A DNA stretch of 64,000 nt from Desulfosudaceae bacterium (GCA_963674745.2 CAXXDV010000001.1:2080001-2144000); one strand, 5' to 3'. Positions 20,022 to 38,447 are shown, counted from the first letter of the stretch. Made by a program: numbers and translations. Notes: a model not told the origin generated them from the sequence alone.

Positions 20022-20147
20022 ATCCAACGTCTGAAGCCAATGGCAGCCAGGGCTTCCACCGACTTCCTTAAAGATGTTTGTTGTTCAATTCTCGTGGTTG
20101 TACAACAAAGCCCGCTCGGGCTGTTTTTTTTGGCTGACTTGTTAGCC
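20022..20147 (-). other. attC 2 (family A, degenerate arms)
   Basis: CCAACGTCTGAAGCCAATGGCAGCCAGGGC..GTTAGCC. Confidence 0.8.
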
Positions 20148-20694: not shown

Positions 20695-20723
20695 ATGGTA
20701 CTGCTTTGGTACCACACTGTCAA
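20695..20723 (-). promoter_or_regulatory. hicAB promoter (likely leaderless mRNA) with TGGTACCA palindrome
   Basis: TTGACA-N17-TACCAT, 5 nt before the hicA ATG; no SD. Confidence 0.75.
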
Positions 20724-20737
20724 GCAATTTGACTTGT

Positions 20738-21215
20738 TTATACGGTTTCCCCTATTACCTTATTCATCTTTATACATTCAAGTTGAGTCCCATCAGGCAA
20801 CTCATGAAAATCTGTTCCGTTTTCAACATAACCATGGCGTATGTAAAAGTCCGACGCATTGATTGTAGAACAGAGATGCAGTTGATGAATATTTTTTTCC
20901 TAAAGAGATCGCTTTGAGTTTAAATAAAATTTTTCTGCCTATCCCTATCCCTTTTGAATTTGGGTGTACATAAATCGCACTTATTTCTTTATTCTTTATG
21001 TCAAGAATACCAAACCCTGACAAATTGACTTCTTGTTCCGCAACGATAATGACTTTTTCTTGTATAGCACTCTCGTAAATTTCAGGAAGAAGAATATTTG
21101 TCCATTTATCTATGCTTTCCGGGCTGTAATAGTCCTTGCACAACCATCGAATGGAGGCTTTGTGGCATTTTGATATTTCTTCTAAATCATATGTTGTCGC
21201 CAGTCGTATCTGCAT
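20738..21215 (-). pseudogene. GNAT acetyltransferase cassette gene, frameshifted
   Basis: AIYVHP..KGIGIG; removing one A from the A7 run (20892-20898) restores ..STINASDFYIRHGY..CIKMNK. Either a real lesion or a sequencing error. Confidence 0.8.
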
Positions 21216-21224
21216 TTTTTTTAC

Positions 21225-21346
21225 GTATAACGTCTTCAGCCAAAGGGCGCCAGGGCTTCCACTAACTTGCCTAAAATTAATTTATGTTCAATCCCCATGG
21301 TTGTTCGAAACCCGAGTGCCCTGGCTGTCCACTTGAGCTTCTTGGT
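21225..21346 (-). other. attC 3 (family A), interrupted in R'' by the group II intron; remainder at 22057-22061
   Basis: Rejoining gives GT|TATAAGG, complementary to CCTTATAAC at 22514-22522. Confidence 0.88.
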
Positions 21347-22056
21347 GTGTGCCGGGCACGGCACATGTTCTTAAAAGTGAGCCAAGGCTATCATATATTT
21401 GATAATTTTGGCAAGTCTTAGACCCAGCCTGATGGAGGCGAAGGGTGTAGCGGTAGTGCAACGGGGTACCGGTGACGGTGCTTCGGGAGGAAGCCGCCCT
21501 GCTGCGGCAGGGTACCGCGAAGGTACGGGATGACGCACAGGAATCGAGTATAAGGCGCGCACGCCGGGACGAGTCTGCACAACAAGGCAAAGTCCTCTAT
21601 CCATCTTAAGGCGTGTCCGTAAACTCGGCATTTACGTACCGAAAGACACGTGCTTACCCCGGGAGATCTCTCCTGTGCCGTACAACGGCTGAGGGTCGGG
21701 TAACCGGCCCTGACCGCAGGGGAGAAGTCAGCAGAAGGCATAGTAGCCGGCGGAAACGAGCCGGGCCTCCCTTAAGCGGGAGAAGTATACCCGGAGGACT
21801 CACCCCGGTGAAGGCCGGAACGGTGCCCGGACCGAATGGCACGGGTAAATGGTGGTGGCAAGTAAGGGAGTATCTCTTACGGGGATAATGCGGCAGCTGC
21901 CGAAATTCACGTAGCGAGCTTTCTCTGAAAACCCGGTGGAACTGGTGGGATAACTCACAGCCGGTCTCATCAGTACCAGCCGAACCGCCTTGGTACGTGA
22001 TCCGTATGCCAGGTGGTGTGGGAGGGGGTAGCCGTGAGGCTACTCCCTATCCCAAT
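21347..22056 (+). mobile_element. Group IIC-attC intron, ORF-less (710 nt)
   Basis: 5' GTGTG; 3' DV/DVI GAACCGCC..GTACGTGATCCGTATGCCAGGTGGTGTGGGAGG..CCCTATCCCAAT; inserted in attC antisense to the cassettes; no RT ORF. Confidence 0.88.
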
Positions 22057-22065
22057 TATAAGGAT

Positions 22066-22512
22066 TTAATATGGGTTCTTATATGGTCCCTCCCAGATTC
22101 CCGACAAAACGATCGTTGCTGTAGAAGCACTACGAGTTCTGAAAGTTGCATATCCAGTCTCTCCAGGCTCCAATTTGGGATATATCAGTCGTGTCTTTTC
22201 CCCAACTACTTGTCCATCTTGATCAAGCTCGACGAAGAATACTTCACTTGGGAGTGGTAACTTGCCATTGTATGAAACTCGGCAAGTAAGCCCAGAGATA
22301 GGGTGACAATTATTGATGGTGAATATCTTCTGCAAGTCTCCAGTCAGTTTCATAACGGGAACGCACCAGCCATCCTCGTTGGGGACCATTCCGTACTTAC
22401 TGCAATCTTGGGGATCATAGACTCCTGAGCAGCTTAATACAGCAGAGAAAAGGAGTGCTGAAGCAACCCTGAAAATCAACCTCAAATATTTTATTTCTTG
22501 TCTTTGTTGCAT
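22066..22512 (-). CDS. Cassette: hypothetical lipoprotein
   Basis: Hydrophobic leader with VLSC lipobox; bounded by R boxes. Confidence 0.75.
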   Translation of the reverse strand: MQQRQEIKYLRLIFRVASALLFSAVLSCSGVYDPQDCSKYGMVPNEDGWCVPVMKLTGDLQKIFTINNCHPISGLTCRVSYNGKLPLPSEVFFVELDQDGQVVGEKTRLIYPKLEPGETGYATFRTRSASTATIVLSGIWEGPYKNPY

Positions 22513-22515
22513 ACC

Positions 22516-22638
22516 TTATAACGTCTCAAGCCAATGGAAACCAGGGCTTCCACCAGCTTGGTTAAAGATTATGGTTGTTCAGTTCCCCTAATTTTTCAAA
22601 ACCAGAGTGCCCTGGTTGTCCACTTGAGCTTGATTGTT
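22516..22638 (-). other. attC 4 (family A), separated from its cassette by the recombinase/IS91 element
   Basis: TCAAGCCAATGGAAACCAGGGC..GCCCTGGTTGTCCACTTGAGCTTGA..GTT. Confidence 0.88.
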
Positions 22639-22729
22639 GAACGAAGCCGCTACGCGGCGGATTAATAAAAAACAAGGTATACTCCAATACGTGCTCAATT
22701 ACGGGCACCCCCAATAAAAGGAGTATACC

Positions 22730-23634
22730 ATGAACGATTCGGAAGTAAAACGTTTCAACCGGCTTTATGAGCGGCACCTGGAGTTGCTCAAGCTTCAGGG
22801 GATGAGTCCGAGGACCATTGATCTCTATGCCCGTTCAGTCCGCCGCATTCGTAACCATTTTGATTGTTGTCCCGACCATTTACGTCCGGAACAATTGGAA
22901 GGTTATTTCTCTCAGCTGGTGGATAGCCATTCCTGGAGCACGGTCAGGGTTGACCGTAACGGCTTGCAGTTCTTCTGGCGGTATGTGCTCGGAAAGGACT
23001 GGGAATGGATCAAGATCGTCAAACCGCCGAAAGTCAAAACCATACCGGACATTCTTACCGTTTCCGAAGTTGAACGGATCATCGGCAAAACCAAGAAATT
23101 GCGTTACCGGGTATTTCTGCTGACAACCTATTCCATGGGATTGCGTCTGGAAGAGACGTTGTCCCTTCAGATCGGGGACATTGATGCTGAACGCAAAAAG
23201 GTCCATATCCGCCGGGGTAAAGGTCATAAGGACCGAATGCTGCCATTGCCGGATCTTACGTTGGAGGGCCTGCGGGAGCTTTGGCGTAAGCATCGTCATC
23301 CTAATTTGTTATTCCCCAATTGCAAGGGTTCTTTAGAAACCATCCGGGCGGCCACCAACTTTATGGATAAAGGCGGCTGTCAGAGGGCCATGAAAGTGGT
23401 CGTCGCCGAATGCGGCATTAAAAAAAAGTATCCATTCACTCCCTGCGTCACAGTTTTGCCACCCACCTGCTTGAACGCGGCTTAAGCCTCCGTCACATCC
23501 AGGCCCTGCTTGGCCATGCCAGTCCCTCCACAACAGCACGTTATACGCATCTAAGCGATATAACGGAGCAGGACAGCCTGACTGTCTTAAATGAGTTGAT
23601 AAATACAATCCATGTTGATTTTAGAAAGGTATGA
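22730..23634 (+). CDS. Tyrosine recombinase, complete only via a -1 frameshift at A8G (23420-23428)
   Basis: 0 frame: SAM-like N-terminus, [10 protein letters not shown]. -1 frame: [26 protein letters not shown], stop overlapping the tnp ATG (ATGA). Confidence 0.85.
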
Positions 23635-24686
23635 TTATGGAACTGGCATCAATTATTGATCAGTACGCTGACAGGTTTATGGAAAAGCACGGCCAAAAAG
23701 CCTTGCCGGGGCATCTTAAAGCCTTGCGTGCCATACGCAGGTGCCGCACTCCTGCCTCCGGAGAATTTCACGTTCAGTGCCCCGGCTGCCAACATGGACA
23801 ATGGAAACCAATGTCCTGCGGGCACCGGAGCTGCCCCAAATGCCAGAATCATGAGGCCAGTCAGTGGATCGACCGGCAGCAGGAGAAACTGCTTCCGGTG
23901 CTTTACTTTATGGCGACGTTTACGCTGCCGTTTGAACTCCGTCCGCTGGCCTGGAACAATCAGCGGGATGTATATTCAATCTTCTTTTCCTGCGTGTCCG
24001 AAACACTCAAGGATTTTGGCTTAAACCCGAAGCAAATGGGCGCAGAAATCGGTTTGACCATGGTTCTGCATACGAACACCCGAAGTCTGGATTATCATCC
24101 TCATATCCATGTGGTGGTGCCCGGCGGCGGGATTGATAAGCGCCGGCGACAATGGAAAAAGAAAAAAGGAAAATATCTGTTTAATGAGTTTAACCTGGCC
24201 ACGGTCTTTCGTGCCCGTTTTCTGGCCGCTTTAAGAAAAGCCGGCCTTTATGTGCCTAAAAATACACCTGCAAAATGGGTCGTGGATTGTGAAAAGGTCG
24301 GTAACGGGCTCCCGGTCATAAAGTACCTGTCCCGGTACTTATACCGGGGTGTAATCAGTGAAAAGAATATTGTGGCCAATGAAAATGGCCGGGTCACCTT
24401 CAGGTACACTGAAAGCGGCACCGGCCATACCCGTTATCGTACGCTTGACGGAGAAGATTTTCTCCAGCTCATTCTGCAGCATGTCCTGCCCAAGGGCTTC
24501 CGCAGGGTGCGCGATTACGGGTTTCTTCATGGCAACGCCAAAAAGACGCTGCAACTGGTGCAATTGATCCTGCATGTCCGGCTTGGAATAAAAACCCAAC
24601 GCCCGAGACCTGCTGTAAAGTGCCCCCGTTGCCACATCCCGATGGTCATCAAAGGGTTCCGTTACGCGGCCTGGAAGCCGGGATAA
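23631..24686 (+). CDS. IS91-family rolling-circle transposase
   Basis: Zn-binding [26 protein letters not shown]2 motif [17 protein letters not shown]. Confidence 0.95.
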
Positions 24687-24941: not shown

Positions 24942-25069
24942 TTACCCCTTTCGCTACACAGAAAAAACCATGCGATATCAAAAAATTACACGCTTACAAA
25001 ATTTTGTTTAAAAGAATAAATTAAAAAGATTTTGTTATTGGAACAAAATTGCATTATCAGCGAATTTTA

Positions 25070-25285
25070 CTAAATGTTTTCCCAAATGTCATATCCAATA
25101 AAAATTATTATTAGAACACAAAACAAAAGAATTATAATTTTTCTTCTTCGTAGACATTTCGGGCATCGATAAACATATTTATATCTTTCTGTCAGCGACC
25201 AATGATTAAGCACAAGCTCAACATCTTTTTCAGATACTTCAATTCCGCAGGAGGCACATTTCATGTCATTTTTTGCTTTAATCAT
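25070..25285 (-). CDS. Cassette: small CxxC..CxxC protein with C-terminal TM helix, copy A
   Basis: CASC..CPKC, hydrophobic tail; ATG lies within the R' box. Confidence 0.7.
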   Translation of the reverse strand: MIKAKNDMKCASCGIEVSEKDVELVLNHWSLTERYKYVYRCPKCLRRRKIIILLFCVLIIIFIGYDIWENI

Positions 25286-25409
25286 AACGTCTTCAGCCAA
25301 AGGGCGCCAGGGCTTCCTCTGACTGACTTAAAGTCGGTTGATGTTCAATTTCCCGAGGATGTTCAAAACCCGAGTGCCCTGGCGATCCTTTTGCGCTGAA
25401 TTGTTGAGT
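25282..25409 (-). other. attC 5 (family A)
   Basis: TTCAGCCAAAGGGCGCCAGGGC..GCCCTGGCGATCCTTTTGCGCTGAA; 3 extrahelical bases. Confidence 0.9.
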
Positions 25410-25416
25410 GTAAATT

Positions 25417-25782
25417 TTATTTGTTTGGTTCTATAAAATCATCAACTTCAATATGAATATCCCGGCAACCAAGGAATTCCTCATCTACTTCGTATATATT
25501 TAATATACCACCATATTCAGCAGTGAGTTCACCATCCCAAAAGATAGCTTGAATTTCGATTAACACGTGATCTCCGACATGGATTGTTTCTTTTTCCTGA
25601 TTAACTATTACATCTTCGTTATGATAATCATTATCTTCTACAGCATAGTATATACTTACTTCTCTGTCTGTATCATTGAAAACTCTTACGCAAAAATTTT
25701 GCGGGTCATCAAAATCGAACGGATCAGTGCAGCCAAACATTATCAAAAAAATAACCGGTACTAATTTAATGAAAATATTCAC
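25417..25782 (-). CDS. Cassette: acidic hypothetical lipoprotein
   Basis: MFGC lipobox-like leader. Confidence 0.72.
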   Translation of the reverse strand: MNIFIKLVPVIFLIMFGCTDPFDFDDPQNFCVRVFNDTDREVSIYYAVEDNDYHNEDVIVNQEKETIHVGDHVLIEIQAIFWDGELTAEYGGILNIYEVDEEFLGCRDIHIEVDDFIEPNK

Positions 25783-25787
25783 TCTAC

Positions 25788-25913
25788 ACTCAACGTCTCC
25801 AGCCAGAGGGCGCCAGGGATTCCACTGACTGTCTTAAAGTTGGTGAATGTTAAATCCCCCCGGTTGTCCAACAAAGCCCGCCCTGGCGGTCCTGCTGGGC
25901 TGGATTGTTATGA
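25788..25913 (-). other. attC 6 (family A)
   Basis: Family A arms; AAC..GTT ends. Confidence 0.9.
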
Positions 25914-25929
25914 TTTAGGATATTATTTT

Positions 25930-26275
25930 TCAATCCACCCATTCAACTTTTACTTTAGTTCCTCTAAGACCTTCAAAAAACCCGCCGACTAAGGCCCATG
26001 CGGTTTTTTGGTTCCCTTGTCTTGTTTTAACTTTTATCCAAAAAATTCGTTGTCTCCAAACAAGTTTAAAAAAAAATGGATTCATTTTTAATCTTGGATA
26101 TTTGAAGTCTATTAAAGCATATCCATTATTACTTGCCCAGATTTCGAGTATTTTTTTACCCTTTTTCGAGTTATAATAATGTTCAAATATAAACAATATA
26201 AGGAGAATAGATATCGGAACATTACATAATGATAGTAATATTAAAAGATCATTGTTCATATGCAGAAAAATCATA
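25930..26275 (-). CDS. Cassette: hypothetical membrane protein
   Basis: N-terminal TM helix; start trimmed to the ATG inside the cassette. Confidence 0.7.
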
Positions 26276-26396
26276 ACGGCGGCAGCCAAAGCAGCCAGGG
26301 CTTCCACTGCCTTTATTAAAGTTGTTTGCTGCTCAATTCCCCCGGCATGTTCAAAAACCGAATGCCCTGGCTGTCATTTGGGCTGCTTGGTTAAGT
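26271..26396 (-). other. attC 7 (family A)
   Basis: GCAGCCAAAGCAGCCAGGGC..GCCCTGGCTGTCATTTGGGCTGC. Confidence 0.9.
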
Positions 26397-26680
26397 GCCC
26401 GCATTATTCAGAAAGCCTTTAACGACAGCATGGGCAAATCAATTAAAATGATTTTTTTCTTTTTACGCCTTGTCCATCATGAACTTATGAAAACGGGTAG
26501 GTCTCTTTTCATCCGGACAAATAAAGGCGCAAAATCAAACAGTCCCGCCAGATCAAAATACAGCTTATCTTTACTGATTGAAAATATCAATCTGGTGACA
26601 ATTTCCATAGTGGCAACGAAGATCATTTTTCGTCAAAATTCTTTTTTTATTTTTTCCCGTACAGATTAAGTGCACTTAAC
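26390..26680 (-). other. ORF-less cassette, family 1, copy 1
   Basis: GTTAAGTG..CACTTAAC bounds; homologous to 31833-32126 and 32843-33134; no - strand ORF. Confidence 0.85.
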
Positions 26681-26797
26681 GTCCGCCACCACCGGCGAGC
26701 AGGGTTTGCGGACTTCCTTAAAGTGAGTTTAACACCAAACTATGCCAGGACAAAAGCAGCCCGCCCCTGCGAGTCCGGGTGAGTGGCATTGTTATCT
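26674..26797 (-). other. attC 8 (family B)
   Basis: CCGCCACCACCGGCGAGCAGGG..CCCTGCGAGTCCGGGTGAGTGGC. Confidence 0.9.
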
Positions 26798-26798
26798 T

Positions 26799-27287
26799 TC
26801 AGTTTTTTAATATTTTTGATTCTATTAATTCATTTTTTAAAATCATAAAAATTCCTGCTACTACCGTAAAACCATGTGCAAATGAATTACTCCAATAGAA
26901 ACCTCCTCCCGAGCGAATTGGTAAAAGGAATAAATCTCTGATTAAGGAGGACGTTCCACTTGTGAAAAAGTATATGCCTAAAAGAATAAGCCAAAAGGAT
27001 AGATTAGAGTAATTGGGGTCGCTTTCATCTGTCTTGGGTGTTACTTTAGAATCTCCGGAAATAAAATTTGATATTTTTTCGGCCTTCGAAATTAAGAGGA
27101 TTGCAACAATAATATAAAATATCGGGAGAAAAGAAGCCCAAATATTATATAGCACAGGATTCTTGATAAACTTTTCCTGATTGATAGCAAATGAAGAGAT
27201 TAATCCAGAAAATGCATATGGTATTTGAACTAAAAGATAAAGGCCGTAAATACGTGTTGCAATTTCAATGGCTTTTTTTGTGCTCAT
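26799..27287 (-). CDS. Cassette: 4-TM hypothetical membrane protein
   Basis: Four hydrophobic segments; GAAGGA before MSTKK. Confidence 0.75.
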   Translation of the reverse strand: MSTKKAIEIATRIYGLYLLVQIPYAFSGLISSFAINQEKFIKNPVLYNIWASFLPIFYIIVAILLISKAEKISNFISGDSKVTPKTDESDPNYSNLSFWLILLGIYFFTSGTSSLIRDLFLLPIRSGGGFYWSNSFAHGFTVVAGIFMILKNELIESKILKN

Positions 27288-27303
27288 AGAGTTCCTTGAA
27301 GAA

Positions 27304-27432
27304 AGATAACGGCGGCCGCCAATGGGAGCCAGGGCTTCCACTGACTTGCCTTAAAATTGGTTGCTATTCAACTTCCCCCGAATGTTCAAACCCCGGGGTG
27401 CCCTGGCTATCCTTTGCGCGGCCTTGTTATGA
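27304..27432 (-). other. attC 9 (family A)
   Basis: GGCCGCCAATGGGAGCCAGGGC..GCCCTGGCTATCCTTTGCGCGGCC. Confidence 0.9.
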
Positions 27433-27560
27433 TTACCCCTTTCGCTACACAGAAAAAACCATGCGATATCAAAAAATTACACGCTTACAAAATTTTGTTT
27501 AAAAGAATAAATTAAAAAGATTTTGTTATTGGAACAAAATTGCATTATCAGTGAATTTTA

Positions 27561-27776
27561 CTAAATGTTTTCCCAAATGTCATATCCAATAAAAATTATT
27601 ATTAGAACACAAAACAAAAGAATTATAATTTTTCTTCTTCGTAGACATTTCGGGCATCGATAAACATATTTATATCTTTCTGTCAGCGACCAATGATTAA
27701 GCACAAGCTCAACATCTTTTTCAGATACTTCAATTCCGCAGGAGGCACATTTCATGTCATTTTTTGCTTTAATCAT
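27561..27776 (-). CDS. Cassette: small CxxC..CxxC TM protein, copy B
   Basis: The 354-bp body (27426-27779) is nearly identical to 24935-25288. Confidence 0.7.
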   Translation of the reverse strand: MIKAKNDMKCASCGIEVSEKDVELVLNHWSLTERYKYVYRCPKCLRRRKIIILLFCVLIIIFIGYDIWENI

Positions 27777-27901
27777 AACGGCGGCAGCCAAAGGGCGCCA
27801 GGGCCTTCTCTGACAGCCTTTAAGAAGGTTACTGTTCAGTTTTCTTCGAATGTTCCAAAACCCGAGTGCCCTGGCGATCCTCTTGCGCTGCCTGGTTAGT
27901 T
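27773..27901 (-). other. attC 10 (family A)
   Basis: Family A arms. Confidence 0.9.
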
Positions 27902-28281
27902 TTCTTTTTATTTCTTATGGTTAGAATCATTTTATATAAATCCTCCATCTGCTCACCTGCCCATGGATACATACGATAATTTTTTGATCTGGGTAATATG
28001 CTATTGGCTATGTCGAAGCAATTGCAACTATCGATGTCAATTTGAAAATTCATTATGACCATTGATTTGGTTTTATTATCATAAATTTTGAGATCGGCCC
28101 ATGAACGGGGCCATTCACTGTTTCTCTCTACATAGAATGTTGTTTGTTTAATAACATCGGCAGTTTTATATTCTGGGTCGACGTTGAAAATTATTGCAGA
28201 AAAATGGCCAAACAAATAGGCAACAAAGATTGATAAAATCCATAAAACAAAAATCAAAATTTTTTTCTTTTTGCCTGTCAT
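27829..28281 (-). CDS. Cassette: membrane-anchored hypothetical protein; stop lies inside attC
   Basis: MTGKKKK followed by a TM helix. Confidence 0.7.
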   Translation of the reverse strand: MTGKKKKILIFVLWILSIFVAYLFGHFSAIIFNVDPEYKTADVIKQTTFYVERNSEWPRSWADLKIYDNKTKSMVIMNFQIDIDSCNCFDIANSILPRSKNYRMYPWAGEQMEDLYKMILTIRNKKKTNQAAQEDRQGTRVLEHSKKTEQ

Positions 28282-28301
28282 TTCGAGCTTGCTCTCATGA
28301 A

Positions 28302-28429
28302 AACTAACGTCTTCAGCCAAAGGGCGCCAGGGCTGTCTCTGACTGACTTAAAGTCTGTTGATGTTCAATTCAGCACGGCTGTTCAAAAGCCGAATGCCCT
28401 GGCGATCCTATTGCGCTGAATTGTTCGGT
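28302..28429 (-). other. attC 11 (family A)
   Basis: Family A arms. Confidence 0.9.
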
Positions 28430-28896
28430 GCCTTAAGGGTTTCTATAGATTCCAGCAATTCTTTTATAAATTGATCAAAATTATTCTTGTTTGAGCCGTT
28501 ATTACCGATATTAAAAGCTATTAAACCATTATCCATTTTGAATTGATAGAATTCTATTTTCCCCCAATTGATAATTGCAAGGATTGCGCATAGTAGAGGT
28601 ATAAATAAGAAGAACATATGTGCTAAAAAGGGGAGCCCTCCGCCTTCAAAATAAAAAATAAGTTCGGCAAACAAAGCAATTGGTAAAGACCCAACAAATA
28701 TGCCTGCCGAATATTTAAAGGTTTCAGTTCTGATCCAAACCTTATCATATATGGGGTCAATCTTCTTGAGGTCTAATTTGGCTTCAGATTTTTCACCCCA
28801 AGATCGTTTGCTCTTAAAAATTAGAAAATCATCGTTTATTTCAAAGTCTCTAACAGTTCCATTGAAACGATGTGAGTATTTTTTGATTTTGTTCAT
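28408..28896 (-). CDS. Cassette: 2-TM hypothetical protein
   Basis: Fills the cassette; two central hydrophobic segments. Confidence 0.72.
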   Translation of the reverse strand: MNKIKKYSHRFNGTVRDFEINDDFLIFKSKRSWGEKSEAKLDLKKIDPIYDKVWIRTETFKYSAGIFVGSLPIALFAELIFYFEGGGLPFLAHMFFLFIPLLCAILAIINWGKIEFYQFKMDNGLIAFNIGNNGSNKNNFDQFIKELLESIETLKAPNNSAQ

Positions 28897-28907
28897 AATA
28901 ATTGTGC

Positions 28908-29031
28908 ACCGAACGTCCGCCACCACCGGCGAGCAGGGTTTGCGGACTTTTTAAGGGTTAGTTCAACACCACACTATGCTAAAAATAAGGCAGGCCGCCC
29001 CTGCGAGTCTGTGTGAGTGGCGTTGTTATGT
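28908..29031 (-). other. attC 12 (family B)
   Basis: Family B arms. Confidence 0.9.
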
Positions 29032-29039
29032 GCCTCTAA

Positions 29040-29378
29040 TCATTCGTATTTCTTATATGCACGCCAATGTGTATCACAATTCAAGCATTTGCTATGGAAA
29101 ACGCCTAAATATCTCCAACTAAAACCGAACAATTCTCCACAGACAGGACAAGTACTGTATTTACTTGCAAGGCTGGAAATGAACAGCGCTACAAGATATG
29201 GCAAAAAAAATATAGCCATGATTATTCCAAAGTAGAATCCATTGAAAAGGATATCGCTAAATAATGCCACAATAATAAAATACGGGAATGTGCAACCAGC
29301 AAGAATCCAGTTGGTTTTTCTCGCAAGCCTAATTTTTCGTAGTTCCTTTGCAATTTTTCTATTGTCTTCTTCACCCAT
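29040..29378 (-). CDS. Cassette: 2-TM protein with C-terminal zinc ribbon
   Basis: CPVCG..CLNC. Confidence 0.72.
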   Translation of the reverse strand: MGEEDNRKIAKELRKIRLARKTNWILAGCTFPYFIIVALFSDILFNGFYFGIIMAIFFLPYLVALFISSLASKYSTCPVCGELFGFSWRYLGVFHSKCLNCDTHWRAYKKYE

Positions 29379-29389
29379 TATTCTTTGGC

Positions 29390-29517
29390 ACATAACGTCG
29401 GCCGCCAATGGGAGCCAGGGCTTCCACTTACTTGCCTTAAAGGTTATTAAAGTTCGTTTTTCCCCGAGTTTTCAAAAACCGAATGCCCTGGCTATCCTTT
29501 GCGCGGCCTGGTTAAGT
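29390..29517 (-). other. attC 13 (family A)
   Basis: Family A arms. Confidence 0.9.
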
Positions 29518-29527
29518 GTCTTAAATA

Positions 29528-29848
29528 TTAATACAATTCGAATAAAACCAAACTGACAATAAATACGTGAACTATCCCAACGCCGAATACAGAATAAAGG
29601 CTGATCTTAAAATTATGTTGGCAAAGCATTCCACATAAAAAATAACAAAATGAAGAGACCAACCAAAAGGCCCAGAAAAATATTATATTATACAGGCGAT
29701 CTAAGGTTACGCCACGAGCACCATTTTCATAAAGTCCATAGTGTATGAGAAATTGTATACCTCCGACAATAATGCCTGAAGCCAACAAAAATAAACTGCA
29801 GGTGATTAATGCTCTTTTACAATATAGGGTTATTTTATCTCCAGCCAT
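29528..29848 (-). CDS. Cassette: 3-TM hypothetical protein
   Basis: Hydrophobic ORF filling the cassette. Confidence 0.68.
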   Translation of the reverse strand: MAGDKITLYCKRALITCSLFLLASGIIVGGIQFLIHYGLYENGARGVTLDRLYNIIFFWAFWLVSSFCYFLCGMLCQHNFKISLYSVFGVGIVHVFIVSLVLFELY

Positions 29849-29856
29849 TATTTTAC

Positions 29857-29985
29857 ACTTAACGCTCTGGTTCACCGGGCGGGCGGCGAACCACGAAAAC
29901 CGCCGAAAGGCGAAAAAGGTTGAAAAATAGCACCACTCAAAAGTGCGGCGCTGTAGCCCGATCCGTGTGCAACCAGTTGTTATCT
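29857..29985 (-). other. attC 14 (singleton)
   Basis: CTGGTTCACCGGGCGGGC..GCCCGATCCGTGTGCAACCAG. Confidence 0.85.
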
Positions 29986-30426
29986 TTTAATTTTATATGT
30001 TTGTAAAACATTTTTACATTCTAAAATTAAACCTGACAAATAGCTTTGGTCGATCTCGAATATAAATTCATGGTTTTGCAAAAGATGATCAGGCGTAAGG
30101 CTAACTTTCATTTCCATTTGACCAAGCTTATTTGCTTCTATACTCATGTACAATTCAGGTTCCATACATGAAAGCTCGGCTTTACCTGAAAGAGTTTGAT
30201 AAAGTTTTTCTGTAGATTCAAGCAATTGGTTTATTTCGGACAAATGGAGTATGTTGCCGGACACCCAAACATAAGATTGTTTTGACTCACATTTAGCCGT
30301 AATATTTACCCAATTCCCATCCCAAAAATCTTTTGAATCTGGAAACTGTCGTCTGTGTATCCATATTTCCAATCCAGCTATTTTAATGTCTGGTTTTTCT
30401 AAATCTTTTGGGAAATCTTTCATCAT
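29980..30426 (-). CDS. Cassette: WapI-like immunity-family protein
   Basis: QFPDSKDFWDGNW..EPEL..IDQSYL pattern recalled from WapI-like proteins. Confidence 0.6.
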   Translation of the reverse strand: MMKDFPKDLEKPDIKIAGLEIWIHRRQFPDSKDFWDGNWVNITAKCESKQSYVWVSGNILHLSEINQLLESTEKLYQTLSGKAELSCMEPELYMSIEANKLGQMEMKVSLTPDHLLQNHEFIFEIDQSYLSGLILECKNVLQTYKIKR

Positions 30427-30434
30427 ATTCTTAA

Positions 30435-30558
30435 AGATAACGTCCGCCACCACCGGCGCGCAGGGTTTGCGGACTTCGCTAAAGTAAGTTAAACACCAAA
30501 TTACGCCAAAACAAAGGCCGCCCGCCCCTGCGAGTCCGGGTGAGTGGCGTTGTTATAT
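30435..30558 (-). other. attC 15 (family B)
   Basis: Family B arms. Confidence 0.9.
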
Positions 30559-30843
30559 TCCAGTTTTTATTTTTATGAAAATAATTGCTGCCAGCAGCCC
30601 TATCATAGCACCAAAAATTATCGACAAATACCATTTTGAAATATTCGTGAATTTTATAATTAGTGCCGGAAAGATCGAAATCAGGATTATTTTGAATAGA
30701 CCTGAAATTAAATAAGGCCAATCCATAAAACCGTAATGCTTGAGCATAGTCAAAAAGAAAATGGAAAATAAACAAATTGTGCTTGCAAAATAAGCAAGTA
30801 ATGCTTGTTTTGAATGAGCTAAAAATTTGCTTTGATCATCCAT
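30553..30843 (-). CDS. Cassette: 3-TM hypothetical protein
   Basis: Hydrophobic; stop codon in the R'' box. Confidence 0.7.
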   Translation of the reverse strand: MDDQSKFLAHSKQALLAYFASTICLFSIFFLTMLKHYGFMDWPYLISGLFKIILISIFPALIIKFTNISKWYLSIIFGAMIGLLAAIIFIKIKTGI

Positions 30844-30860
30844 AAATTTTCTCTTGTGGA

Positions 30861-30986
30861 ATATAACGTCCACGGTGTGAGGCCGCAAGGGGAACAGGCC
30901 ACCCGCAGAAAACTCGTTTATAAAAATAATTGGTAAGAGCCAAAACCGACCGCCCCTTGCGGTCCTTTACCAACGTGTTGTTATGC
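30861..30986 (-). other. attC 16 (singleton)
   Basis: CACG..GGCCGCAAGGGG..CCCCTTGCGGTCC..CGTG. Confidence 0.85.
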
Positions 30987-30988
30987 AA

Positions 30989-31279
30989 CTATCTATAATT
31001 TCGAATTTTTTTGCGTTGCGCTGTATATTTCCACCATTCCTTTGGTTCTCCACCATTCATAAAATCCGTTATAGAAAGAAAAACATCAATCACGCAGGGG
31101 TCATGCTTCTGACCAGTAACTCTACATAGATCATCATACATCGTATAAGCAGATTTACCCTTCAATTTTTCGGGCTTGTCTATATTTATTCGTTTTAAAT
31201 CCTTGGCGATAGCTTTTCCTATGTTTGGAAGATCTGTTAACTCGATGACATTGTCGCGTTTTACTTTGTTTGGATTCAT
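30989..31279 (-). CDS. Cassette: helix-hairpin-helix protein (Cdd1/mitomycin-resistance-like family)
   Basis: LTDLPNIGKAIA HhH, HDPCVIDVF, WWKYT. Confidence 0.8.
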   Translation of the reverse strand: MNPNKVKRDNVIELTDLPNIGKAIAKDLKRINIDKPEKLKGKSAYTMYDDLCRVTGQKHDPCVIDVFLSITDFMNGGEPKEWWKYTAQRKKIRNYR

Positions 31280-31289
31280 ATGAAAAGTT

Positions 31290-31413
31290 GCATAACGCCC
31301 GCCACCACCGGCGAGCAGGGTTTGCGGACTTCTCTAAAGTGAGTTCAACTCCAAATTACGCCACAACAAAAGCCGCGCGTCCCTGCGAGTCCGTGTGGGT
31401 GGCGTTGTTATCT
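31290..31413 (-). other. attC 17 (family B)
   Basis: Family B arms. Confidence 0.9.
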
Positions 31414-31653
31414 CTAAATGTTATGCTTTTTTTTAACTTCTGAGATTCTATCCCAAACTGCTTTTGAAACTGAATCTTGGGATACTTGATCGAAAATGTT
31501 ATTTAGTACCCGTTTTTCATCATCATCAATAATATTATCGGCCATTGCTAATCCAAGCAGATAATTGATTTCTCCAATATCCAGCGTACCATCATCAGTG
31601 AAACATTTAATAGAGTCGAGGGCAATTCTTAAATGACTTTCAAGTGGTGACAT
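31414..31653 (-). CDS. Cassette: small acidic protein, TerB-like motifs
   Basis: DDGTLDIGE and ADNIIDDDE repeats; GAAAGG RBS. Confidence 0.65.
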   Translation of the reverse strand: MSPLESHLRIALDSIKCFTDDGTLDIGEINYLLGLAMADNIIDDDEKRVLNNIFDQVSQDSVSKAVWDRISEVKKKHNI

Positions 31654-31713
31654 TTGATTGTACCTTTCTCTCCAAGAGGGTTGTCGGTTAAAGCGCACTT
31701 AATATTATAAGAG

Positions 31714-31839
31714 AGATAACGTCTGCAGCCAAAGTAGCCAGGGCTTCCAGTGACTGACTTTAAGGTGGTTGATGTTCAATTTCCCCCGAATGTTCAAAAA
31801 CCGAATGCCCTGGCTATCATTTGGGCTGCTTGGTTAAGT
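31714..31839 (-). other. attC 18 (family A)
   Basis: Near-identical to attC 20. Confidence 0.9.
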
Positions 31840-32126
31840 GCCCGCATTATTCAGAAAGACTTTAACGACAGCATGGGCAAATAAAATAAAATGATATTTT
31901 TCTTTTTACGCCTTGTCCATCATGAACTTATGAATACGGGTAGGTCTCTTTTCATCCGGACAAATAAAGCCGCATTATCATTTGGCCGCGCCAGTTCGAA
32001 ATTACAATTTACCTTTACTGGCCGAAAAATTCAACTTGGTGACAATTACCATTTTGGCAACGAATGTCGATTTCAGCCAAAATTCTTTTTTTTATTTTTT
32101 TCCCGTACAGAATCAGTGCACTTAAC
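31833..32126 (-). other. ORF-less cassette, family 1, copy 2 (more diverged)
   Basis: Homologous to copies 1 and 3. Confidence 0.85.
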
Positions 32127-32246
32127 GGCGGCAGCCAAAGCAGCCAGGGCTTCCACCGCCTTTATTAAAGTTGTTTGCTATTTAAGTCCCCCGGCTGTTC
32201 AGAAACGCGCCCGCCCTGGCTGTCGTTTTGCGCTGCCTTGTTGGGA
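32120..32246 (-). other. attC 19 (family A)
   Basis: Family A arms. Confidence 0.9.
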
Positions 32247-32719
32247 AATCTCCTTTTTAAACCAATTCGAATGCATACGACCAAGAGGTATGCAACCCCA
32301 AAAACGAATATGAGCCATGCAAACTGGAGCCCGACGATAGTCCACATGCCAACTCCGGGGACGAGTGTCGCATTACTTGCGTTTGTAGGATCGTAGAAGA
32401 CGACAACATATTCGTCAATTTTGTACTTCCGAAAAATATCCTTGGCGTCCATGTCATCGCCAAAAGAACGCACGCTTGACACATAAGAGTGGCCATCGAT
32501 AGTGTAGCGGTAGGTGACGATTGGAGAGTTACTAATCGGCCTTCCTTGTGACGTCCGTTCATAATCAACACGAAGAATGGTTCCCTCAGTCTTAATCCAT
32601 GATTCGCTTGCTTGCGCCTTGTGTAGGTTCTCGTATTCCAGGCACAGCAGAACGCCGCCCAACGCGATAAAGAAAACCGCCAAGGCAACTGCACGCAATG
32701 CTGATGGTTGTTCCTTCAT
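32165..32719 (-). CDS. Cassette: DUF3592-like membrane protein; stop lies inside attC
   Basis: SW..TEGTI, YRYTIDG..Y, VFYDP.N between two TM helices. Confidence 0.78.
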   Translation of the reverse strand: MKEQPSALRAVALAVFFIALGGVLLCLEYENLHKAQASESWIKTEGTILRVDYERTSQGRPISNSPIVTYRYTIDGHSYVSSVRSFGDDMDAKDIFRKYKIDEYVVVFYDPTNASNATLVPGVGMWTIVGLQFAWLIFVFGVAYLLVVCIRIGLKRRFPNKAAQNDSQGGRVSEQPGDLNSKQL

Positions 32720-32723
32720 TCAT

Positions 32724-32849
32724 TCCCAACGTCTGCAGCCAAAGTAGCCAGGGCTTCCAGTGACTGACTTTAAGGTGGTTGATGTTCAATTTCCCCCGAA
32801 TGTTCAAAAGCCGAATGCCCTGGCTATCATTTGGGCTGCTTGGTTAAGT
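32724..32849 (-). other. attC 20 (family A)
   Basis: Near-identical to attC 18. Confidence 0.9.
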
Positions 32850-33134
32850 GCCCGCATAATTCTGAAAGACTTTAACGACAGCATGGGCAAATAAATGAAA
32901 ATGATATTTTTCTTTTTACGCCTTGTCCATCATGAACTTATGAAAACGGGCAGGTCTCTTTTCATCCGGACAAATATAGGCGCAAAATCAAACAGTCCCG
33001 CCAGATCAAAATACAGCTTATCTTTACTGATTAAAAATATCAATCTGGTGACAATTTCCATAGTGGCAACGAAGATCATTTTTCGTCAAAATTCTTTTTT
33101 TTATTTTTTCCCGTACAGATTAAGTGCACTTAAC
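32843..33134 (-). other. ORF-less cassette, family 1, copy 3
   Basis: Homologous to copies 1 and 2. Confidence 0.85.
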
Positions 33135-33251
33135 GTCCGCCACCACCGGCGAGCAGGGTTTGCGGACTTCGCTAAAGTGAGTTCAACTCCAAACTACGCC
33201 AAAACCAAAGCCGGCCGCCCCTGCGAGTCTGCGTGGGTGGTGTTGTTATAT
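33128..33251 (-). other. attC 21 (family B)
   Basis: Family B arms. Confidence 0.9.
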
Positions 33252-33686
33252 TTAAAAAAAATCTAATTGCGATATTACAGCCGCCAAAATAATTGCAATA
33301 ATAATTGCGCCTAATGCAAGTGCCAAAAACTGGAAGGCTATTGCCCCGCCTCCAAGAACTGCGGCCCCTCCGGCAACTCTGAGAGATTCGTTTTTAATAA
33401 AAGCCACAACTGCAATGATAATCGCTATGCCACCCAAGAGCGCTGTGATCACATCAATTATTTTGTCTGCATCCCATTTCGACGACCATTTTTCTTCTTT
33501 CACTTCTTTACCTTTGAGGGCAGCAACTGTCGCATCTCTTATGGCAACTGCTTTTTCAGCAATGGTTTGCTCTAACTTCGGCTGTGGTGCGAAAGGTCCT
33601 GCGTAAAAATGGAATAAAGCCAACAGCAAAGCAATTGACCCGATAATAACACCGATAATTCCGATCTTTGATTTCTCTTCGTCCAT
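33252..33686 (-). CDS. Cassette: inner-membrane protein (YidI-like)
   Basis: GPFAPQP.LEQ.IAEKA followed by hydrophobic helices. Confidence 0.7.
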   Translation of the reverse strand: MDEEKSKIGIIGVIIGSIALLLALFHFYAGPFAPQPKLEQTIAEKAVAIRDATVAALKGKEVKEEKWSSKWDADKIIDVITALLGGIAIIIAVVAFIKNESLRVAGGAAVLGGGAIAFQFLALALGAIIIAIILAAVISQLDFF

Positions 33687-33699
33687 TGTTGTCCCTAAA

Positions 33700-33826
33700 A
33701 TATAACGTCTGAAGCCAATGGCAGCCAGGGCTTCCACTAACTTGGTTAAGGATTTTGGTTGTTCAACTTCCCCGGCTGTTCAAAACCCGGGTGCCCTGGC
33801 TGTCCACTTGAGCTTCGTTGTTATGT
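33700..33826 (-). other. attC 22 (family A)
   Basis: GAAGCCAATGGCAGCCAGGGC..GCCCTGGCTGTCCACTTGAGCTTC. Confidence 0.9.
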
Positions 33827-33831
33827 CAAAA

Positions 33832-34446
33832 TCATTTATTTGTTTTTTCGGTCTCTTCAATATTTTCTGGTTTAACTTTAATATTCATAATTCGGTTCAT
33901 TTCTTTTGCAATTTTCTTGTCTTGACGTTTATGTTTGTTCGCTTTTAATTTGTCGTTAACATAATCGCGAATGACGTCCAAAATTCTCCACGCCTTTGCA
34001 CCGTCTAAGGGTTCGATTGGCATAAGATTAAATAGAATCATCCATAGGTTTGCACCTATGAAAGCATGATAGATTTGGAAAGTATATATATTCGTTGGGG
34101 GGCCGAAAATCATGATCGCAATTTGTGCGAGAGCCATTAAAACCAATTGTGCAAGTATGCCACCCCAAGATATGATGGTTTCTTGCATTTCAGTAGCTTC
34201 GCCGGCCCATCTGCAATACCCGCCAATGCCCTGAAGAACAATTTCTTCAACCCAGAAACCGAATTTTCGTATTATGATTGCATGACCAAATTCATGAGCT
34301 ATAACTAAGAAGAGAAAAGCAATCCAGAAGATTGGCATAAAATCGAGCCTGCCAAATAAAAATGCACATAGGATTACTGTCCAATGTATCCTAATCGGGG
34401 CATCGTTCCATTCGCCAATTATTAAAGAGTCTTTTGTAAGTTCCAT
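33832..34446 (-). CDS. Cassette: site-2 protease (peptidase M50)
   Basis: HEFGH and FNLMPIEPLDG motifs. Confidence 0.88.
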   Translation of the reverse strand: MELTKDSLIIGEWNDAPIRIHWTVILCAFLFGRLDFMPIFWIAFLFLVIAHEFGHAIIIRKFGFWVEEIVLQGIGGYCRWAGEATEMQETIISWGGILAQLVLMALAQIAIMIFGPPTNIYTFQIYHAFIGANLWMILFNLMPIEPLDGAKAWRILDVIRDYVNDKLKANKHKRQDKKIAKEMNRIMNIKVKPENIEETEKTNK

Positions 34447-34459
34447 GTTTTCTGTAGTG

Positions 34460-34584
34460 ACATAACGTCCGCCACCACCGGCGAGCAGGGATTGCGGACT
34501 TCGCTAAAGTGAGTTTTAACTCCGAATTATGCCAAAACCAAGGCCGCGCGCCCCTGCGAGTCCGGGTGAGTGGCATTGTTATCT
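34460..34584 (-). other. attC 23 (family B)
   Basis: Family B arms. Confidence 0.9.
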
Positions 34585-34923
34585 GTTTATTATTTTTCCT
34601 GTTTGCCCATCAATTTTAACGCCAAGGCTCGCCGAGGATGAATTTGACCCCCAAAAAGCATCATGAACATAATAATACCTTGAGTCAGCATAAAGATGCC
34701 AAACATGTTTCATTGAAAGCATCGGAGGTTTTTTGTGTAGTACAATCATATATGCCTCCTCAGGTGTAATTTTAAAACCATTTGGTGGTTCAATATTTTC
34801 AGTTGGAAAGTTTTTCTCAGTCCAAACCGGATAAATATCATCGTAGTAGGAGCAAATGGACGATAAGCACCCAGTTCCAAACAGTAAAACTAATAAAAAA
34901 AATAATATTCTATATTTCTTCAT
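34579..34923 (-). CDS. Cassette: hypothetical lipoprotein
   Basis: MKK, hydrophobic leader, GTGC. Confidence 0.72.
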   Translation of the reverse strand: MKKYRILFFLLVLLFGTGCLSSICSYYDDIYPVWTEKNFPTENIEPPNGFKITPEEAYMIVLHKKPPMLSMKHVWHLYADSRYYYVHDAFWGSNSSSASLGVKIDGQTGKIINR

Positions 34924-34927
34924 ATAC

Positions 34928-35052
34928 AGATAACGGCGGCAGCCAAAGTAGCCAGGGCTTTCTCCGACTGCCTTAAAGATGGTTAATGTTCAATTTTCCC
35001 CGAATTTTCGAACCCGAGTGCCCTGGCTGTCATTTGGGCTGCTTGGTTGTGC
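34928..35052 (-). other. attC 24 (family A)
   Basis: Family A arms. Confidence 0.9.
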
Positions 35053-35326
35053 GAAAATATATTTTATAGTGATTCACAAAAATTTGCAGGGCTTTTCGTT
35101 ACAAAGTTTTGCAAAAAAGTACAGAAACCGTTTTTCATCTTTTCCGGATTGACTGGCGAATTCAAAAAATCCATTTTCCGGCTGATCAGAAACGCATGAT
35201 CTGATCGATGCCGGTGGTTCATTCGCAAAGATGAAAAATATATCTTTTTTCCCCTTTGTTTCAAATTCATCCTGCCAAAAATTATCGAGTAGCTCGATTT
35301 TCCAAAAAGCGTTTTATACGCACAAC
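35046..35326 (-). other. Probable ORF-less cassette, family 2
   Basis: GTTGTGCG..CGCACAAC bounds; only a weak 68-codon ORF. Confidence 0.6.
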
Positions 35327-35447
35327 GCCTTCAGCCAAAGGGCGCCAGGGCTTTCTCTGACTGACTTAAAGATGGATAATGTTCAATTCAGCACGGCTGT
35401 TCAAAATCCTAATGCCCTGGCGATCCTTTTGCGCTGAATTGTTATCC
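35320..35447 (-). other. attC 25 (family A)
   Basis: Family A arms. Confidence 0.9.
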
Positions 35448-35873: not shown

Positions 35874-35880
35874 TGTGTAG

Positions 35881-36008
35881 GGATAACGTCTTCAGCCAGA
35901 GGGCGCCAGGGCTTACTCCGACTGACTTATAGATGGTTTATGTTCAATTCAGCACAGCTGTTCAAAACCCGAGTGCCCTGGCGATCCTACTGGGCTGAAT
36001 TGTTCGAC
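35881..36008 (-). other. attC 26 (family A)
   Basis: Family A arms. Confidence 0.9.
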
Positions 36009-37115: not shown

Positions 37116-38447
37116 ATGGATGAATTCACCAACTATCTGTTATCAAAAGCAATAGTCCCCCAGAAGCAGGTCCGGTATTATGTGAGCTGGTTAAAAACGT
37201 TTTTTCGTTTAATCGGTAAAGACCCGTCCGAGAATGTGTCTTCTGAAGAAATTAATCAGTTCTTAAAAAACCTGGCTAAAAGATCAGAGGGCTGGCAGGT
37301 AAAGCAGGCCGAACAGGCGATTCGAATTTTTCGTTATTACCAGGGCCGGCAGAAGGCGCCGGCTATTCCTGATGGCAGTGCGCATCAGCAGTGGAAAATT
37401 GCGTCACAAGAGATGAGAAATATGATCCGTTTGAAGCAGTTATCCTTGAAAACGGAAAAAACGTATTTCTCCTGGTTGAGACAGTTTTATGGCTATCTGA
37501 AAGGGGCTTCTCCGTATTCCCTTGACGACACCCACATTACAAATTTTCTGACGCATCTGGCAGTTGAAAGGAATATTGCGGCTTCCACTCAGGATCAGGC
37601 ATTTAACGCCCTGTTGTTTTTCTACCGGCATGTACTGGATAAAGAAGTCAGTCATCTGGGTGACGTGGTGCGATCAAAAAAAAGAAAGTGGCTTCCGGTG
37701 GTACTGACAAGGGATGAAGTGTCTCGTTTGTTTGAAAATATGCAGGGTGTAAGCCGGCTGATGGCGAAGGTAATTTATAGCGGCGGATTGCGACTTCAGG
37801 AATGCGTCAGGTTGAGAGTCAAGGATATTGATTTTGAACGCGACACGTTGGTGATCAAATTTGCCAAGGGCAATAAAGACAGAGAAACCTTGCTCGCAGG
37901 ATCCATAAGGGAAGACCTGAAAAACCACCTTGAAAAAGTGAAGGCGCTTTATGACCTGGACAGGGAAAATGACACACCGGGCGTGGAAATGCCCAACGCT
38001 CTGGATCGGAAGTATCCCAATGCCGGAAAAGAATGGCCCTGGCAATGGGTGTTCCCCTCGCAAACCTTGTCCAAAGACCCCCGTTCAAAAATTATCAGGC
38101 GGCATCATGTGCATTCGTCAAATTTGCAGAAACAGATCAAAACCGCCGCATTCAAGGCGGGTATCGCAAAACGGGTAACAACGCATACATTGCGGCACAG
38201 CTTTGCCACCCATTTACTGGAAGACGGTTATGATATCCGAACCATTCAGGAATTGTTAGGCCATGCCAGCCTGAAAACCACCATGATATATACCCATGTG
38301 GCCCAAAAAAACCGGCTGGGTGTGAGAAGCCCGCTGGATTCAATCCGGGAAAGCCCGGGATACAACTGCGCTAAGAGCGCCATGGTTTATATCCATGCAG
38401 ACCGGAAAAACCGGTTGTACGTGAAAAGTCCGCTGGACCGGTTGTAA
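37116..38447 (+). CDS. intI: Integron integrase, long form
   Basis: GLRLQE, KGNKDR, IntI-specific insert [55 protein letters not shown]. Confidence 0.97.
   Translation: MDEFTNYLLSKAIVPQKQVRYYVSWLKTFFRLIGKDPSENVSSEEINQFLKNLAKRSEGWQVKQAEQAIRIFRYYQGRQKAPAIPDGSAHQQWKIASQEMRNMIRLKQLSLKTEKTYFSWLRQFYGYLKGASPYSLDDTHITNFLTHLAVERNIAASTQDQAFNALLFFYRHVLDKEVSHLGDVVRSKKRKWLPVVLTRDEVSRLFENMQGVSRLMAKVIYSGGLRLQECVRLRVKDIDFERDTLVIKFAKGNKDRETLLAGSIREDLKNHLEKVKALYDLDRENDTPGVEMPNALDRKYPNAGKEWPWQWVFPSQTLSKDPRSKIIRRHHVHSSNLQKQIKTAAFKAGIAKRVTTHTLRHSFATHLLEDGYDIRTIQELLGHASLKTTMIYTHVAQKNRLGVRSPLDSIRESPGYNCAKSAMVYIHADRKNRLYVKSPLDRL

Follow-up and report, generated by a model that had tools for sequence, protein, structure and literature searches.

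An intron that splits the recombination site of an integron cassette, and that carries no gene for a reverse transcriptase (RT) or maturase, raises the question of how it came to lie there: as a ribozyme mobilised by a protein from elsewhere, as a protein-free nuclease, or as the dead remnant of a larger element. The intron lies in a 64-kb stretch of DNA (hereafter the window, meaning the whole stretch that was analysed; positions are counted from its first letter), which belongs to a genome of 5.55 Mb in 3 contigs. A preliminary description of the window had read the element as a non-autonomous group IIC intron within an attC site, and the evidence bearing on that reading is set out below.

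A complete group IIC ribozyme without an enzyme gene

The ends of the element can be read directly, since the + strand runs ...CTTCTTGGT|GTGTGCCGGG...CCCTATCCCAAT|TATAAGGAT and thereby delimits the 710-nt intron (Table 1). Both group II termini are present (GUGUG at 21347–21351 and ..AAU at 22054–22056), and they are identical in six copies in the genome and recur in 30 relatives. At gathering thresholds, the sole Rfam matches in the 64-kb window fall within the intron: RF02001 (group-II-D1D4-3; 121 bits, E 2.6e-24, gathering 32, positions 21466–21653), which we take to be the class C group II model, and RF01998 (group-II-D1D4-1; 41.8 bits, gathering 35, positions 21690–21767, with an extent of 21690–21816 in the E-value run). 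The domain V/VI model RF00029 scored below gathering (13.7 bits versus 40, E 9.8; 22004–22056), and domains V and VI were therefore established by covariation in the 30 relatives instead. Class IIC introns have a short domain V with a CGC triad. An RT/maturase ORF is absent from the intron, whose longest internal ORF is 107 aa, and none of the five ORFs overlapping it matched a Pfam family at E ≤ 0.1. The element is a genuine group IIC intron that possesses complete ribozyme domains I–VI and lacks an enzyme gene of its own. Its assignment to the IIC-attC introns would rest on site, strand and motif, the clade defined by the intron-encoded protein (IEP) being a separate criterion.

Table 1. Features of the intron, its insertion site and the neighbouring cassette array, in window coordinates.
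Feature	Position	Strand	Basis
ORF-less group IIC-attC intron, GUGUG...CCCAAU	21347..22056	+	sequence, Rfam, six genome copies, fold of 30 relatives
Domain I	21352..21662	+	consensus structure projected on the window; RF02001 covers 21466–21653
EBS1 ACAA, in an 8-nt terminal loop	21579..21582	+	loop placed by RF02001 alignment
Domain II	21663..21729	+	consensus structure
Domain III	21736..21817	+	consensus structure; RF01998 in the E-value run
Domain IV, 162 nt, no ORF	21821..21982	+	consensus structure; structured remnant 21850–21978 with a DIVa-like hairpin
Domain V, 34 nt, 2-nt bulge	21984..22017	+	triad C21986-G21987-C21988, G.U wobble
Domain VI, bulged U22048/A22049	22020..22053	+	projection; upper-stem covariation
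IBS1 TGGT, last 4 nt of the 5′ exon	21343..21346	+	sequence, copies, EBS1 test
IBS3 T, first nt of the 3′ exon	22057	+	with 21345–21346 (GT) and 22058–22061, forms the split R″ GT|TATAA
Interrupted attC body (bottom strand), from R′ GTATAAC 21225–21231 to the insertion point	21225..21346	+	R′/R″ complementarity, repeats
Cassette ORF, 148 aa, no family; parted from its own attC by the intron	22066..22512	-	ORF and family search
Next cassette downstream, GNAT acetyltransferase-like ORF	20823..21215	-	ORF and family search
Integron integrase of the intron-holding array (G000:C1:2117407-2118342)	37407..38342	+	TIGR02249 415.7 bits, cut-off 265

The consensus fold of 30 ORF-less elements (mean column identity 69%) comprises 194 pairs, of which 88 are compensatory. 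Specifically, the domain V triad pairs (columns 757–759/785–787) are invariant in 29 of the 30 sequences, the remaining one being gapped there, and pairing at columns 762–782 and 764–780 is kept with both sides changed in 13 sequences each. Upper-stem pairs of domain VI are fully swapped among relatives (columns 800–815: UA in 11, CG in 11 and GC in 5), and bulged A22049, the 8th nucleotide from the 3′ end, is the putative branch A. These results bear out the intron bounds, GTGTG start, missing RT/maturase ORF and IIC-type domain V/VI end of the preliminary description, the last of them by covariation in both domains despite the low RF00029 score, and the Rfam search and RNA fold that it had proposed as checks returned matches above gathering and covarying domains I–III. 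Its estimate of ~100–150 nt for domain IV was close to the measured length.

Domain IV deserves separate consideration, as its structured part takes the place of the ORF. This ORF-less part contains 35 pairs, with 94.1% of cells paired and 23 pairs changed on both sides; 0 of 500 shuffles equalled this pairing, and slid controls were 28–45% paired. Such compensatory changes indicate that selection acts on the RNA. In ORF-bearing relatives, a hairpin homologous to that of domain IV encloses the IEP start codon, which identifies the short domain IV as the 5′ end of an old ORF region, kept as structured RNA; in one relative (L042/L062), domain IV is still readable as the first ~20 IEP codons. By analogy with other group II introns (PMC2882425), the hairpin, which lies at 21880–21920 in the window intron, is presumed to be DIVa, the docking site of the IEP.

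A split attC site on the bottom strand

The intron occupies the attC of the 22066–22512 cassette, near the distal end of an array in which attC-type repeats span 20–36 kb of the window; repeat families D5/D8 mark attC copies at 20023–20144, 21226–21347 and 22517–22638. Because the cassette ORFs lie on the − strand and the integrase on the + strand, the intron occupies the bottom strand of attC and runs antisense to the cassettes, and in that orientation it would not be spliced out of cassette mRNA. The exact ends, ORF strands, attC repeats and integrase thus concur with the bottom-strand insertion at TGGT|T that had been proposed. Removal of the intron joins GT|TATAA into GTTATAA, which resembles the empty sites ...TGGTTA and ...TTGTTA within the same array and is complementary, with 1 mismatch, to GTATAAC at 21225–21231, 122 nt upstream. 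The R″ box is therefore continuous without the intron, as first described, but it is not the perfect box of that description. When the bottom strand of attC is reconstituted and folded as DNA, the structure of minimum energy has its long arms paired and R′/R″ unpaired. With 710 nt separating R″ from the rest of attC, the site should be a poor IntI substrate, and the split R″ suggests that this attC is blocked at the DNA level.

A sigma-70 scan of 20700–22700, the one promoter type covered, returned 2 sites versus 2.9 expected, none of them directed outward from the intron 5′ end as a Pout would be, and a scan around the intron gave 0 terminators. At least two attC families are present at 25000–36000 of the window (..GCCCTGGC..TGGTTA and ..CCCCTGCGAGTCCG..GGCATTGTTAT); both end in the target motif of the intron, and one attC in the window is occupied. 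One cassette from the intron, at 22730–24686 (+), the array is interrupted by a tyrosine recombinase (251 aa, Phage_int_SAM_4 and Phage_integrase) and, after it, a transposase of the IS91 family (351 aa, NF033538 389 bits); the recombinase has matches at four genomic positions.

Genomic copies and matching of EBS1 to the target

A search for other short copies in the genome, as the preliminary description had advised, yielded five further full-length ones. The six 710-nt copies (c1, in the window, to c6) are 99–100% identical, with 0, 3, 7, 3, 5 and 7 of 710 positions changed relative to the window copy, and occupy six different sites, three on C1 and three on C3. Each has exact GTGTG...CCCAAT ends, with flanks that are unlike on both sides, and the copies lie in or adjoin mapped attC arrays. 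The target is TGGT|T in five of the six; TTGT|T is used by one copy and by an RT-bearing relative in the same genome. The same attC arm (..GCCCTGGC.., with one T variant) precedes 5 of these 7 elements, namely four ORF-less copies and the RT-bearing relative, and copy c4 lies in a 65-nt attC hairpin with R′/R″ pairing. At least 90 empty sites of the same attC family (58 + 32; strict pattern) are present in the genome. A strict search for a complementary R′ at each copy, which is too strict for imperfect attC, gave credible results for c1 and c4, a doubtful one for c2, and none for c3, c5, c6 or the RT-bearing relative.

The 3′ flank of copy c2 (G000:C1:1483320 onward) is nearly the same as that of L017 (G009:C6), a 1824-nt RT-bearing intron of another genus (tggggcaaaaaaa..tattgacaattcgcc), and the 5′ flanks of the two differ. 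Such a pattern is expected from recombination between intron copies that joins a gene to a new attC.

The EBS1 that had been suspected near 21579–21585 is placed at its first four positions by the RF02001 terminal loop and by covariation with the exon. At position 21581, c1 and c2 carry A and c3–c6 carry C, which changes ACAA to ACCA; the ACCA loop is a perfect match to the TGGT sites of c3–c5 and is mismatched at the TTGT site of c6. In the window copy, three of the four ACAA/TGGT positions pair, the exception being an A.G clash at −3, and pairing at the six copies is 3–4 of 4 each. ACAA is also the loop of the RT-bearing relative. Over 37 distinct element/site pairs, Watson–Crick pairing averaged 3.32 of 4 positions, compared to 2.65 for shuffled exons, and 0 of 10,000 shuffles reached this value, although the elements are kin by descent, so that independence is overstated, and 6 of 45 elements, in which the loop pattern had no match, were left out. 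The loop variants are distributed accordingly: AACA accompanies ..GTT| and, in most cases, a 3′ exon A, whereas the other three all accompany a 3′ exon T, with ACAA found at ..TTGT| or ..TGGT|, ACCU at AGGT| and CGGT|, and ACCA likewise at ..GT|. Class IIC introns recognise their targets through a short EBS1/IBS1 and through EBS3/IBS3, beside an upstream hairpin and with no EBS2; in the present elements, a coordination-loop variant, UAUAA versus UCA, tracks 3′ exon T versus A.

The RT-bearing relative and candidate helper proteins

The RT-encoding parent that had been anticipated has a counterpart in the genome, insofar as a 1932-nt relative was found at TTGT|T (C3:1857065->1855134). It is 94% identical to the window copy over nt 1–511, and 100% identical over 50 nt of domain V. 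Its ORF encodes an RT and maturase (RVT_1 and GIIM) with no endonuclease domain, and the frame is cut by an in-frame TAA at codon 301. As this is the sole cognate RT gene in the genome, present-day mobility there is doubtful. The cognate helper is present solely as a pseudogene, and the intron family is probably stranded in this genome now. An open 446-aa IEP, with 85–86% identity, occurs in 2 of 5 other genomes that have ORF-less copies. The 1932-nt intron is not a parent in the sense of simple deletion: blastn of domain IV against it shows no ORF remnant past the first ~30 nt, and domain IV is recognisable as homologous to the 5′ portion of the ORF region via relatives only.

Two other group II lineages encode RTs in this genome. 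In an intron of the RF02012/RF00029 class (G000:C3:~1849500-1851730, +), the RT is broken by a frameshift and a TGA; this intron sits among IIC copies in the same array. The other lineage, of the RF02005 class, consists of two identical introns (G000:C1:2271650 and C3:2339500) with an intact 458-aa RT/maturase (TIGR04416 342 bits, cut-off 300), which belongs to another RNA class and shares 40% identity over 212 residues with the IIC IEP. About 1 kb from the RT-bearing intron, a cassette array on G000:C3 (L007 2883–3509, +) contains an ORF that is open at the end of the locus, has an S-T-F-K motif and by eye resembles a class D beta-lactamase/BlaR-type domain.

Distribution and mosaic origin of the ORF-less lineage

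Matches were found in 4 of 13 genomes of the window's own family, G000 included; the others contain decayed RT-bearing forms (1824 and 1922 nt) or deletion forms with RT remnants (884 and 887 nt). In a class-wide sample, 132 of 401 genomes match, and 13 genomes from five other families contain 16 loci where the match is unbroken from nt 1 to nt 656 or beyond, and so includes the short domain IV, at 71–85% identity. Members of at least 5 further families in the order carry ORF-less forms of ~690–730 nt with a short domain IV. When species-representative genomes were searched with a pattern that extends across domain IV, 83 stretches matched; most are in records named Desulfobacterales, Desulfobacter, Desulfosarcina, Desulfobacterium or Desulfatiglandales, and 3–6 copies occur in each of several records. 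From these loci, 45 complete elements were delimited, 39 of them distinct. These matches across families show that the window intron is no one-off relic but a member of a conserved protein-less lineage that is present in many related genomes of sulfate reducers.

The same pattern also matched L060, L064, L074, L089, L099, L110, L111, L115, L116, L122, L124 and L130, in records of Bacteroidales, Lapidilactobacillus, Acidobacteriota, Dysgonomonas, Paenibacillus, Domibacillus, Burkholderiales, Saccharibacteria, Bryobacterales, Nitrospira and Flavobacteriaceae; none of the twelve gave complete intron ends. These matches outside Desulfobacterales may be chance matches, of which a rough estimate predicts several, or other introns. 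At L033 and L036 (G273 and G130), the 3′ strand of domain V (..GGTGGT|), ~660 nt from the start of the element, is immediately followed by a second GTGTG... intron; the two are twintrons, in which the domain V hairpin with TGGT seems to mimic an attC-type target.

Phylogenies of the two parts of the intron are in conflict. On the DI–DIII tree, ORF-less and ORF-bearing elements are interspersed, with at least 4–5 state changes, and the window copy groups with the resident RT-bearing intron (support 95/89); for DIV–DVI, it pairs with three copies of a Desulfosarcina MAG (100/99). A grouping of the window copy with Desulfosarcina, which was named after the data were seen, is rejected on DI–DIII (delta lnL 138, p-AU 1.8e-5). 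These placements imply that modules were exchanged between intron lineages; the element, itself a mosaic, belongs to an older ORF-less lineage.

Contigs from sequencing runs

Four sequencing runs were examined, all as contigs. None contained a contig joining 21346 to 22057, as an empty site or ligated exons would, so that excision, splicing and presence/absence polymorphism all went unobserved. Joints from 21346 to 22518/22519 are most simply other attC copies. In runs X1 and X2, the flanks are present at depth 9–14 with many intron variants, and 21581 A>C also occurs in contigs of runs X1–X3. Contigs of X22, a marine-sediment metatranscriptome, include a ~93%-identical ORF-less relative with unbroken DIII-DIV-DV. 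In one X22 contig (window 22053->21346), ...CCCTAT is joined head-to-tail to GTGTG, and a similar tandem arrangement occurs in a MAG contig (L083 5′ flank). The CCCTAT|GTGTG junction could come from circular RNA, from DNA copies in tandem or from the assembly itself, DNA being possible in such libraries.

Proposed mechanism and alternatives

In our view, this is likely to be a group IIC-attC intron of the non-autonomous kind, which has a short, structured domain IV and is mobilised in trans. Its RNA would be bound, spliced and carried by an RT/maturase from a related intron, and the RNP would locate the folded bottom strand of attC. There, EBS1 (4 nt) would pair with the last 4 nt before the insertion point of R″ (GT|T) and EBS3 with the next base, whereupon the RNA would reverse-splice into attC and be copied to DNA. 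Spread within the genome would have reached six sites in three cassette arrays. The A-to-C change of EBS1 (ACAA to ACCA) would suit the TGGT R″ of the resident attC family, with the window copy keeping the older ACAA, and the mosaic would have drawn DI–DIII from a source closest to the resident RT-bearing intron and DIV–VI from one closest to the Desulfosarcina MAG introns. We infer the trans step from copy number, exact ends and EBS1/IBS1 covariation. The preliminary description had likewise favoured a non-autonomous ribozyme, and had stated that an element whose domains I–III did not fold, with no other copy or cognate RT, would be a dead relic; what was found is a covarying fold of domains I–III, five more copies and an RT-bearing relative.

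Against trans-mobilisation stand the lack of an intact cognate IEP in the genome, its other RTs being broken or of another class, the EBS1 mismatches of the window copy and c6 at their own sites, and the fact that no contig of the four runs bridges an empty site or ligated exons. The missing cognate IEP also counts in favour of a HYER-like role, with the RNA kept chiefly as a protein-free, guided hydrolytic endonuclease acting on folded attC bottom strands, and retromobility secondary or historical. Hydrolysis of ssDNA and RNA by class IIC introns without an ORF, using a 6–7-nt recognition site, is described in the published accounts available to us (PMC11754743, PMC12990946), and the lineage considered here is conserved across families with its catalytic core intact. 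However, every copy has exact ends in a target matching its EBS1 and putative EBS3, which is the footprint of reverse splicing and cDNA synthesis and thus of an RT, and the covarying start-codon hairpin of domain IV suits protein binding better than it suits a protein-free nuclease; such a role is, in our view, unlikely. An RT might instead come from outside the intron's class, with the two intact 458-aa RF02005-class RT/maturases, the sole intact group II IEPs in the genome, serving as relaxed ‘driver’ IEPs for the IIC copies. Drivers of relaxed specificity exist in T. elongatus, according to the available part of PMC2882425, but known drivers act on closely related introns, whereas these proteins have the low identity and different RNA class given above; moreover, the DIVa hairpin resembles that of IIC ORF-bearing relatives, and we attach very little weight to this explanation.

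It is similarly hard to credit that the copies are dead, as immobile deletion derivatives duplicated with their cassettes by integrase or homologous recombination. These elements do undergo recombination (the window copy has a mosaic make-up, and c2 has a 3′ flank in common with an intron of another genus, with 5′ flanks that differ), and decayed copies are frequent in the family. Nevertheless, cassette duplication would carry the flanks along, yet those of the six copies are unrelated and the ends exact; in addition, EBS1 variants follow the target sequence, the ORF-less domain IV has undergone compensatory evolution, and the same form is found in at least 13 other genomes. Returning to trans-mobilisation, a wider and rather doubtful possibility is that the ~700-nt form represents an old, self-sustaining ‘parasite of a parasite’, an attC-homing lineage spread across Desulfobacterales families. 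Such a lineage would keep its IEP-docking hairpin, swap modules with resident RT-bearing introns such that DI–DIII fits the local IEP, and retune EBS1 to the local attC; it might also lock cassettes by splitting R″, possibly with HYER-type cutting of folded attC bottom strands.

Comparison with known systems

IIC-attC introns of the S.ma.I2 type, which belong to integron cassette arrays and CALINs, enter the bottom strand of attC at TTGT/T of R″, face against the direction in which cassettes are transcribed, and are often found in distal cassettes (PMC3001079, PMC7923331). The window intron resembles them in site, strand and motif, and its resident relative lies at TTGT|T with an IEP of RT and maturase only. 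It differs in lacking an IEP gene, in that most copies are at TGGT|T with a matching EBS1, and in that no sigma-70 Pout was seen.

Another precedent is TeI3 of T. elongatus (Mohr, Ghanem, Lambowitz 2010), in which deletion of the ORF spared DIVa, copies without an ORF are more numerous than those with one, new target families arose through altered EBS sequences, IEPs act in trans, and sites have good EBS/IBS pairing (PMC2882425). The two systems have in common ORF-less, DIVa-keeping and EBS-diversifying introns. By contrast, TeI3 is non-IIC, has no attC hairpin targets in the account available, and derives from one deletion in one genome where intact driver IEPs are present, whereas the ORF-less form described here spans several families, is interspersed with ORF-bearing elements on the DI–DIII tree, and has a broken resident IEP.

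Bacterial ORF-less group II introns have been deemed rare and short-lived (review PMC4424553). An ORF-less intron summarised in that review (2008) is, like the window intron, the genome-mate of a closely related IEP-bearing intron. Unlike the picture given there, the present lineage is multi-copy and extends over several families, with a short domain IV under purifying and compensatory evolution; an attC-homing ORF-less form with its RNA under selection therefore contrasts with the reviewed view. Such introns may have been overlooked: one census used a 24-bit cut for RF00029 (PMC8919778, available part), above the 13.7 bits of the window domains V and VI, and where RF00029-type scores fall this far below threshold, model-based censuses would miss them. 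A census preprint lists more ORF-less introns in Desulfobacterota, undescribed in the part available (10.1101/2021.09.28.462093), and a literature search of incomplete coverage found no published account of an ORF-less IIC-attC lineage.

ORF-less IIC introns and IIC-attC introns are each already known; what is added here is the retuning of EBS1, the covarying short domain IV, the mosaicism and the stranded helper gene. With EBS1 variants that naturally correspond to variants of attC, both the targeting rules of IIC-attC introns and their suggested locking or reshuffling of cassettes become testable. Small natural ribozymes of class IIC are also of current interest as programmable nucleases, namely HYERs (Liu et al., Science 2024, via PMC11754743, PMC12990946), which are natural ORF-less class IIC introns of ~0.4–0.64 kb with short guides. 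Compared by description only, the window intron is likewise class IIC and devoid of an ORF; HYERs are defined by protein-free hydrolytic cleavage, whereas the window intron is known here from its sequence.
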